From IMG/VR virus record IMGVR_UViG_2541047896_000002: 7,722 nucleotides of DNA; one strand, 5' to 3'. The notes beneath the pieces are model-generated. The model worked only from the letters and a program-made list of their open reading frames with translations, did no database searches and was not told the origin of the DNA. This DNA comes from a virus (Monodnaviria > Loebvirae > Hofneiviricota > Faserviricetes > Tubulavirales > Inoviridae). The position numbers and the translations under genes were made by a program. The first letter of the stretch is position 1. Each line of letters starts with the position of its first letter. This document shows positions 2 through 101 of this stretch, piece by piece.

Positions 2-34
2 GGTGCGCATAATGTTTGACTCGTTATGTTGAAA
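2..34 (+). other. dif-like XerC/XerD recombination site (attachment site); XerC arm identical to E. coli dif
   Basis: Positions 2-12 GGTGCGCATAA match, from memory, the 11-bp XerC-binding arm of E. coli dif (GGTGCGCATAA-TGTATA-TTATGTTAAAT) exactly. Positions 24-34 TTATGTTGAAA match the XerD arm at 9 of 11 positions, but the spacer is 11 bp rather than 6. Confidence 0.6.
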
Positions 35-35
35 A

Positions 36-67
36 GGCCGCTGCGAAAATAGAATCCCGCAGCGGCC
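36..67. terminator. Perfect 10-bp GC-rich stem-loop; possible terminator for the minus-strand genes and tip of the attP hairpin
   Basis: GGCCGCTGCG (36-45), 12-nt loop, CGCAGCGGCC (58-67). On the minus strand it is followed by TTTTC and lies about 35 nt downstream of the stop of the 102..368 minus-strand ORF. Confidence 0.5.
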
Positions 68-68
68 T

Positions 69-93
69 CTTTAGCATAACGTCATTATGCGCA
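69..93 (-). other. Second dif-like site in inverted orientation
   Basis: The reverse complement of 69-93 reads TGCGCATAATG-ACG-TTATGCTAAAG: a perfect XerC-arm core, a short central region, and an XerD-like arm matching dif at 9 of 11 positions. Confidence 0.5.
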
Positions 94-101
94 TTAGGGC
101 G

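Follow-up and report, generated by a model that had tools for sequence, protein, structure and literature searches.

The first 96 nucleotides of the DNA analysed here (hereafter the window, 7722 nt in all) can be read as the attachment site, attP, of a filamentous phage without an integrase, that is, of a CTX-type IMEX that would use its folded (+) strand for integration. We give this reading a probability of about 0.8. Its two parts are best kept apart: that Xer-mediated integration takes place at dif through positions 1-96 is nearly certain, and that the folded (+) single strand is the substrate is highly probable, as argued from the geometry of the spacers and from conservation. An integration mechanism and a precise crossover are in this way assigned to an uncharacterised enterobacterial inovirus, and the same phage, with identical proteins, occurs in several host backgrounds.

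The attachment site consists of two inverted dif-like sites on either side of a tip stem-loop (Table 1). Site 1 opens with the XerC-binding arm GGTGCGCATAA, which is exactly identical to the XerC arm of E. coli dif, as had been claimed from the sequence alone; the full E. coli dif is GGTGCGCATAATGTATATTATGTTAAAT, the form found intact at the right ends of the prophages, and the identity with host dif covers positions 2-15. Read on the minus strand from 95 to 69, the second dif-like site is AATGCGCATAA TGACG TTATGCTAAAG. Two inverted repeats were found in the region, a perfect one of 11 nt (4-14/83-93) and one of 24 nt that is 88% complementary (22-45/58-81). The coordinates proposed in the sequence-only reading were right within 1-2 bases. 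That is, an inverted copy of the XerC arm had been placed at 83-93, and these positions do form a perfect inverted repeat with 4-14, but the mirror of 2-12 lies at 85-95 and agrees at only 9 of 11 positions; in the hairpin, G2 and G3 stand opposite T95 and T94. Likewise, the inner arms thought to pair imperfectly as 22-34/70-82 do pair imperfectly, but as 22-35 with 68-81, leaving T82 unpaired and A34 mismatched with C69. The unpaired stretch at 15-21, which appears as a bulge in the predicted fold, and the perfect 10-bp stem of the tip were both as described.

Table 1. Features of the attachment site and of the phage genome, with positions in the 7722-nt window
Feature	Position	Strand	Basis or remark
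Complete attP(+) hairpin region: two inverted dif-like sites and tip stem-loop	1-96	+	ssDNA fold, conservation in 43 variants
Site 1 XerC-binding arm, GGTGCGCATAA	2-12	+	Identical to E. coli dif XerC arm
Site 1 central region, 11 nt, TGTTTGACTCG	13-23	+	TGT 13-15 as start of dif TGTATA; bulge 15-21; CG 22-23 paired
Site 1 XerD-like arm, TTATGTTGAAA	24-34	+	9/11 to dif XerD arm
Tip stem-loop: perfect 10-bp GC-rich stem (36-45/58-67), 12-nt loop (46-57)	36-67	+	Repeats and fold
Site 2 XerD-like arm, TTATGCTAAAG	69-79	-	Pairs imperfectly with 24-35
Site 2 central region, TGACG, 5 nt	80-84	-	5-nt length constant among variants
Site 2 XerC-like arm, AATGCGCATAA	85-95	-	Pairs with 2-12
Cargo ORF, 88 aa, phrog_37184 (function unknown)	102-368	-	Hypervariable slot directly after hairpin
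Stretch resembling the major intergenic region of If1	486-549	+	Marks right border of cargo slot
Gene II, rolling-circle replication initiator	873-1988	+	Pfam G2P_X_C and Phage_CRI
ssDNA-binding protein	2005-2295	+	Pfam/PHROGs
ORF	2313-2582	+	Within inovirus core block 2005-7385
Major coat protein	2594-2842	+	Pfam/PHROGs
g3p	2907-4790	+	Pfam/PHROGs
g6p (DUF2523)	4801-5088	+	Pfam/PHROGs
Zot/g1p	5092-6126	+	Pfam/PHROGs
Secretin g4p	6123-7385	+	Pfam/PHROGs
Phage-side flank, CTTATCTGCGCAC	7710-7722	+	Precedes XerC arm in circle and tandem arrays; directly left of regenerated dif at attR

When positions 1-100 of the plus strand were folded as single-stranded DNA, the free energy was -31.0 kcal/mol against a shuffle mean of -13.1 (z = -6.84), and none of 200 shuffles folded as well; the minus strand of the same region reached -30.7 kcal/mol (z = -7.97). 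The stable hairpin anticipated for this stretch was therefore recovered, and it also persisted when folded as part of a circular stretch of 400 nt, where the XerC-arm helix and the tip stem had pair probabilities of 0.98-1.0. In this prediction the (+) strand pairs both sites into one XerC arm, one bulged central region and one XerD arm, with two competing registers in the central region (13-14 with 83-84, or 17-19 with 82-84). The description of the hairpin as 'forked' did not hold, since the predicted structure is unbranched; it is the 150-nt hairpin of CTXΦ that has a branched tip. The tip stem probably nucleates folding of the hairpin. It may also act as a bidirectional terminator, a suggestion prompted by the minus strand reading the stem followed by TTTTCAAC; a terminator and promoter scan did not flag the stem, the loop exceeding the 8 nt of that scan.

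An exact 11-mer such as the XerC arm is expected by chance about 0.004 times in 7.7 kb, both strands included. With two mismatches allowed, the XerC-arm motif was found twice against 2.3 expected, which alone is not significant. The non-random feature is the arrangement and conservation of the dif-like arms, not the motif as such. The motif being no commoner than in shuffles could be taken to mean that the whole is a chance inverted repeat without function. That explanation can be regarded as already refuted by the fold z-score of about -7, by the conservation of the site in more than 60 loci from at least six enterobacterial genera, and by the prophage junctions, which fall precisely within the site.

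The junctions were obtained from host chromosomes in which the identical phage (7722-nt unit, identical Zot) resides at dif, in at least four contexts and as one, two or three tandem copies. In these, attL consists of the host XerC arm followed by phage sequence from position 13 onwards, and attR of the phage flank, the XerC arm and host TGTATA-TTATGTTAAAT, i.e. a perfect dif, which is available for further insertions. The second dif that was to be looked for at the other prophage end was thus intact in every host context examined, and recombination exactly within the segment shared with dif bears out the claim of integration at host dif without a phage integrase. The crossover could be mapped in GCA_040011405.1, in which attL reads AGTGCGCATAA-TGTTTGACTCG, keeping a host A, and attR reads ...CTTATCTGCGCACT-GGTGCGCATAA-TGTATATTATGTTAAAT, with the G of the phage. 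GGTGCGCATAA is present at every internal junction and in the dif on the right. This host A/phage G polymorphism confines the crossover to GTGCGCATAA-TGT, between base 1 of the XerC arm and base 4 of the central region, a position that would fit cleavage by XerC at the border between arm and central region, after A12.

Comparable arrangements were seen with relatives of the phage. In E. coli G5 a 97%-identical phage forms a tandem pair adjoining hipBA, with a perfect dif on the right (...CTGCGCACT-GGTGCGCATAA-TGTATA-TTATGTTAAAT), and both at the inter-copy junction and at the left end site 1 continues as TGTGTGACTCG. A relative in E. coli A37 is present as a free circle of 7439 bp and as a chromosomal array; the circle is closed by the same sequence that joins the copies of the array, and the hybrids expected at attL and attR are present. 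The attL arms vary with the host, being GGTGCACATAA in Yersinia, GGAGCGCATAA in Kosakonia and GGTGCGCCTAA in Photorhabdus. Such variation, together with the window beginning one base before the XerC arm like a prophage cut at attL, would agree with the dif-like arm 2-12 being host DNA, a scar of attL included when the prophage was delimited, with the hairpin serving only as a terminator or complementary-strand origin and integration following some other route. We consider this very improbable, as the arm occurs after phage sequence at every inter-copy junction and also in the free circle of the A37 relative, and the end and start of the window join exactly like the inter-copy junctions. Indeed, because CTTATCTGCGCAC at the window's end is followed by TGGTGCGCATAATGTTTGACTCG of its start in arrays with a 7722-nt period, the window represents one complete, circularly closed inovirus unit, and 1-96 is true phage DNA and not host flank.

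Across this circular junction (7713-7722 joined to 1-9) lies CTGCGCAC-T-GGTGCGCA, which together with the XerC arm makes up a compact, imperfect palindrome. The palindrome is kept in the A37 relative (tacctgcgcacT) and not in the phage of E. coli UTAK-3. It was the only such element encountered when a second dif-like site was sought near the 3′ end of the window, where none was found.

In agreement with the sequence-only reading, no integrase is encoded in the window: when 27 distinct ORFs, all the long ones among them, were compared with Pfam and PHROGs, no integrase, resolvase, transposase or XafT-like protein was revealed. An integrase gene lying in the flanks had been named as evidence that would speak against a CTX-type site, and two tyrosine-recombinase genes are indeed found just to the right of dif in two hosts. 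However, both are absent from three other contexts in which the identical phage has the same junctions, which implies that they belong to a different island; they were therefore rejected as the true integrase (absent from three of five host contexts), and the CTX-type reading survives. In E. coli G5 (L001 11844-14778) the two adjacent genes lie about 170 nt to the right of dif and are followed by a gene block with helix-turn-helix regulators and hypothetical proteins, and a similar block comes after dif in GCA_040011405.1 (L071 12856-15712). This block appears to be a separate island that also adjoins dif.

Two further observations concern the surroundings of integrated copies. To the left of the G5 prophage (L002 ~4040-6331), an ISNCY element that resembles ISKpn21 and carries DUF6904 as a passenger gene has entered at precisely the outer edge of the XerC arm, where ATATT is probably a 5-bp duplication; this insertion matches the published observation that IS1202-family elements target dif and pdif sites (PMC10132070). 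Furthermore, a related prophage copy (68% window coverage, 96% identity) lies at 189218-197422 of NZ_CP173491.1 from E. coli 98219, a replicon record of 272,740 bp, i.e. 273 kb, and not a full-size chromosome.

Conservation of the site was assessed on 43 distinct versions of the hairpin. They came from three pattern scans, two run on viral contigs and one on genomes, whose patterns prescribed part of the 5′ arm; TGT was imposed by none of them. The top spacer measures 11 nt in 41 versions and 10 nt in the other two, and it begins with TGT and ends with CG in 43/43. The bottom spacer is 5 nt in all of them (TGACG in 40, TGGCG in 2). Every variant adopts the same fold, at -25 to -38 kcal/mol. 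When 26 sequences were aligned (alignment A1), the stems, including the tip stem, were invariant or nearly so, with drift in the bulge (columns 17-22) and the loop (columns 47-58), and 96.5% of the cells could pair, versus 29-52% in slid controls. Many relatives have a G/A mismatch (columns 6/94) and a T/G wobble (columns 11/89) within the XerC-arm duplex. Covariation gives weak support, since the family is very similar: 28 of the 37 pairs never vary. With compensatory changes in only 3/37 pairs, the conservation argument rests on where variation is tolerated and not on covariation. Moreover, site 1 lies on the coding strand in all 75 protein matches of the 43 loci. In inoviruses the coding strand is the packaged strand. 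As candidate sequence rules for E. coli XerCD, the data suggest an invariant TGT and CG around a freely drifting bulge, with a fixed 5-nt bottom spacer.

A second type of hairpin was observed in the prophage of E. coli UTAK-3 (L003 15798-15900, 16262-16352), which has a different backbone and carries the standard hairpin together with two copies of the second one. The latter shares the 11/5 layout and differs in its tip stem (CGGGTGCGGCGA...) and in the start of its central region, which is GAC and not TGT. As GAC replaces TGT, it should not pair with E. coli dif, and it may be left over from a hybrid phage or act as a site in a different host.

The following course of events would account for these results. 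As expected from inovirus biology, circular (+) single-stranded DNA would be delivered or produced by the phage, and positions 1-96 would then fold by pairing of site 1 (2-34) with inverted site 2 (69-95), a prediction in keeping with the conservation pattern. In the product the XerC arm (2-12/85-95) would be duplex and the XerD arm (24-35/68-79) an imperfect duplex; a central region with a 7-nt bulge of the 5′ strand would separate the two, and the 10-bp GC stem would cap the hairpin. By homology with CTXΦ, host XerC and XerD would bind this pseudo-dif and bring it into synapsis with the dif of the chromosome; XerC would cut after A12 and exchange one pair of strands, an exchange that the shared TGT at 13-15 would stabilise. 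XerD would presumably leave the reaction uncompleted, and the pseudo-Holliday junction would be resolved by replication. The outcome, a prophage at dif with a hybrid attL and a perfect dif at attR, is what the junction sequences display. Duplex attL (11-bp spacer) and duplex site 2 (5 bp) would not be Xer substrates, making integration irreversible, and new (+) circles would arise through gene II rolling-circle replication across tandem copies. Tandem arrays of two and three copies with a 7722-nt period, and a circular episome in a relative, were observed.

Several lines of evidence favour the folded single strand. In duplex form the spacers would be 11 and 5 bp as against 6 in dif, much as CTXΦ attP(+) has spacers of 12 and 7 bp against 6 in the account of Val et al. 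(2005) given in PMC3089051. In addition, the TGT and CG ends and the spacer lengths are fixed across the 43 versions, the stems are near-invariant while bulge and loop drift, and site 1 is on the coding, packaged strand in each of the matches mentioned above. Against this, with the bulge extruded the arms would be only about 4-5 bp apart, and the 5-nt bottom spacer is shorter than the 6-7 nt of the CTXΦ variants. Also, the junction sequences on their own would be the same whether XerC acted on the folded strand or on duplex site 1. They are thus equally compatible with a VGJ-type route, in which duplex site 1 of the double-stranded replicative form would suffice for integration by a first exchange catalysed by XerC, replication resolves the intermediate, and site 2 and the tip stem serve otherwise, for example as a terminator between the convergent gene IV and cargo units. 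A circular duplex form does exist in a relative, and TTTTC after the tip stem on the minus strand, with TTTTT on the plus strand in many relatives, fits a terminator. Nevertheless, we hold this route to be unlikely. The duplex spacer of site 1 is 10-11 bp in all 43 variants versus 6 bp in dif; the arms of site 2 stay in register with site 1 while bulge and loop drift, which a plain terminator would not need; and the architecture is found again in CTXΦ, whose branched tip is unrelated, and in the second UTAK-3 hairpin, with its different tip stem.

The CTX-type mechanism class has been known since 2005. Both this class and an attP module of the YpfΦ type are already known; the phage that carries the module here is not. 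Two matches were obtained by the genome scan in Yersinia pestis NCTC5923, one attL and one inter-copy junction, belonging to a prophage that we regard as YpfΦ, given that it lies at dif in tandem copies in this host. Positions 1-96 are identical to the NCTC5923 inter-copy junction at 89 of 96 positions, so that the attP modules are homologous, and they share the XerC arm, TGT, the 11- and 5-nt spacers and the tip stem GGCCGCTGCG/CGCAGCGGCC. A difference lies in the XerC arm of site 2, TTATGCGCATT here and TTGTGCGAACC in YpfΦ, which makes the XerC-arm duplex better paired in the present phage. [quoted passage not shown] Membership in the YpfΦ/CUS-1 lineage was accordingly rejected, only the attP module being common.

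YpfΦ and CUS-1 are reported to integrate at dif with an intact dif at the right end, as here, and to form tandem arrays of 2-4 copies (PMC4266046), compared with 2-3 here. CUS-1, from E. coli K1, and YpfΦ share 99% nucleotide identity over 7.1 kb (PMC4266046), and YpfΦ and CUS-1Φ have been given as relatives of CTXΦ (PMC4246890). YpfΦ is grouped with CTXΦ among the single-strand integrating IMEX (PMC3089051, PMC4246890, PMC4266046), although for YpfΦ/CUS-1 this mode has been proposed or deduced from sequence rather than demonstrated (PMC4266046, PMC3089051). The attachment site of the YpfΦ/CUS-1 type thus proves to be a module common to many otherwise dissimilar filamentous phages of Enterobacterales, which widens the CTX-type class past a few named examples.

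The likeness to CTXΦ itself includes two inverted dif-like sites close together on the (+) strand, non-canonical spacers (11/5 here, 12/7 there), a site 1 XerC arm identical to that of host dif, a central region that opens with the TGT of the host, the AATGCG with which the XerC arm of CTXΦ attP2 begins as it does here, tandem prophages and the lack of an integrase. The XerD arm of CTXΦ attP1 is TTATGTTGAGG (PMC3089051, Table II), to be compared with TTATGTTGAAA here. Folded in the same way, CTXΦ attP showed the XerC helix, the 5′ bulge and the XerD helix in the same order. The bases of the central region on the XerC side that match host dif set integration tropism (PMC3089051), and it is here that TGT (13-15) matches dif TGTATA and is invariant among the variants. 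In contrast, the CTXΦ hairpin is about 150 nt long with a branched tip and some 90 nt between sites, whereas the present one is unbranched, 95 nt long and has 34 nt between the XerD arms; its bottom spacer is 5 nt against 6-7, and its arms match E. coli-type dif, not dif1. Biochemical proof comes from CTXΦ only, and we infer single-strand use for the present phage. The earlier proposal of a CTXΦ attP(+)-type architecture presenting a XerCD substrate is nonetheless strengthened by the match to YpfΦ attP, the CTXΦ-like helix order and the dif junctions.

Other dif-integrating inoviruses resemble the phage less closely. Phages of the VGJΦ and TLCΦ types are filamentous and also integrate at dif through XerCD without an integrase of their own (PMC4246890), but they have a single duplex dif-like site and integrate reversibly, in contrast to the two inverted sites with 11- and 5-bp spacers described here. 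TLCΦ relies on a XerD-first exchange and the activation factor XafT (PMC6744903); a TLCΦ-type assignment was rejected, as no ORF contains a XafT (DUF3653) domain and the crossover is on the XerC side. UPΦ comprises dif-integrating tandem inovirus prophages of E. coli, Klebsiella, Citrobacter, Salmonella and Yersinia, which like the present phage have reverse-oriented variable ORFs just past the dif site (PMC7307601). The UPΦ core is about 70% identical at the amino acid level to IKe/I2-2, and the paper contains no analysis of attP structure, the terms attP, hairpin and inverted being absent from it (PMC7307601). Identity with UPΦ was rejected because no IKe/I2-2 match was found.

All core genes of the phage are encoded on the plus strand, as is site 1, and two small ORFs are on the reverse strand (102-368 and 561-749). 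[quoted passage not shown] The best Zot match among deposited phages was 52% (Dulem virus 52). A megablast search of the whole window against deposited phages returned only a 64-bp match to the If1 intergenic region, and a sensitive blastn search of 1-110 against phages only chance matches of 20-22 nt; that collection therefore contains neither the phage nor its attP. The If1-like stretch is presumably part of a replication origin or packaging region. At the other end of the genome, the 174 nt that close the window (7549-7722), bounded by a conserved ...GCCTGTTTTT on one side and the CTTATCTGCGCAC flank on the other, bear no relation to the 121 nt found in their place in the G5 phage. This stretch constitutes a second small variable cassette, with a 42-aa reverse ORF (7565-7693) here and one of 43 aa in G5.

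The slot that follows the hairpin (97-485) is hypervariable among intact relatives (L006, L017, L062, L083, L084). It often contains a single large reverse-strand gene with a PADLOC match, namely TIR/PDC-S35, PDC-S32, an Aga-type helical REase or a SAVED-TIR-like gene; SIR2/PDC-S25 is also among the single-gene defence candidates of the slot. No PADLOC defence match was obtained for the 88-aa ORF of the window. Copies of the hairpin that are some 90% identical or better sit on inovirus backbones with Zot identities ranging from 42% to 100%, in Escherichia, Yersinia, Photorhabdus, Pectobacterium, Kluyvera, Lelliottia and Kosakonia, and in every case a hypervariable slot for reverse-strand cargo comes next. 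Tentatively, and with somewhat more doubt than conviction, the hairpin of about 95 nt could be viewed as a portable integration cassette coupled to a reverse-strand cargo slot that often holds anti-phage defence candidates, with dif-integrating inoviruses acting as a vehicle for defence genes. If this were true, the part of these phages in carrying and supplying defence genes in Enterobacterales would be significant and so far overlooked.

Finally, about 700 complete E. coli replicon records match only positions 25-95 and 485-540 of the window, at 90-95% identity; 838 records matched overall, with 456 of the places on plasmids. The two matched pieces flank a reverse-strand cargo gene, which is SIR2 (PADLOC PDC-S25), a member of the STM4504 family (PDC-S32) or TIR (L089 3950-5130; L090 3940-5520). 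In these records an ISNCY/IS1202-family element ends in place of the XerC arm of site 1, and the other side has a transposase gene of the ISNCY type. They look like remnants, IS-captured left ends of dif-integrating inoviruses with defence genes.
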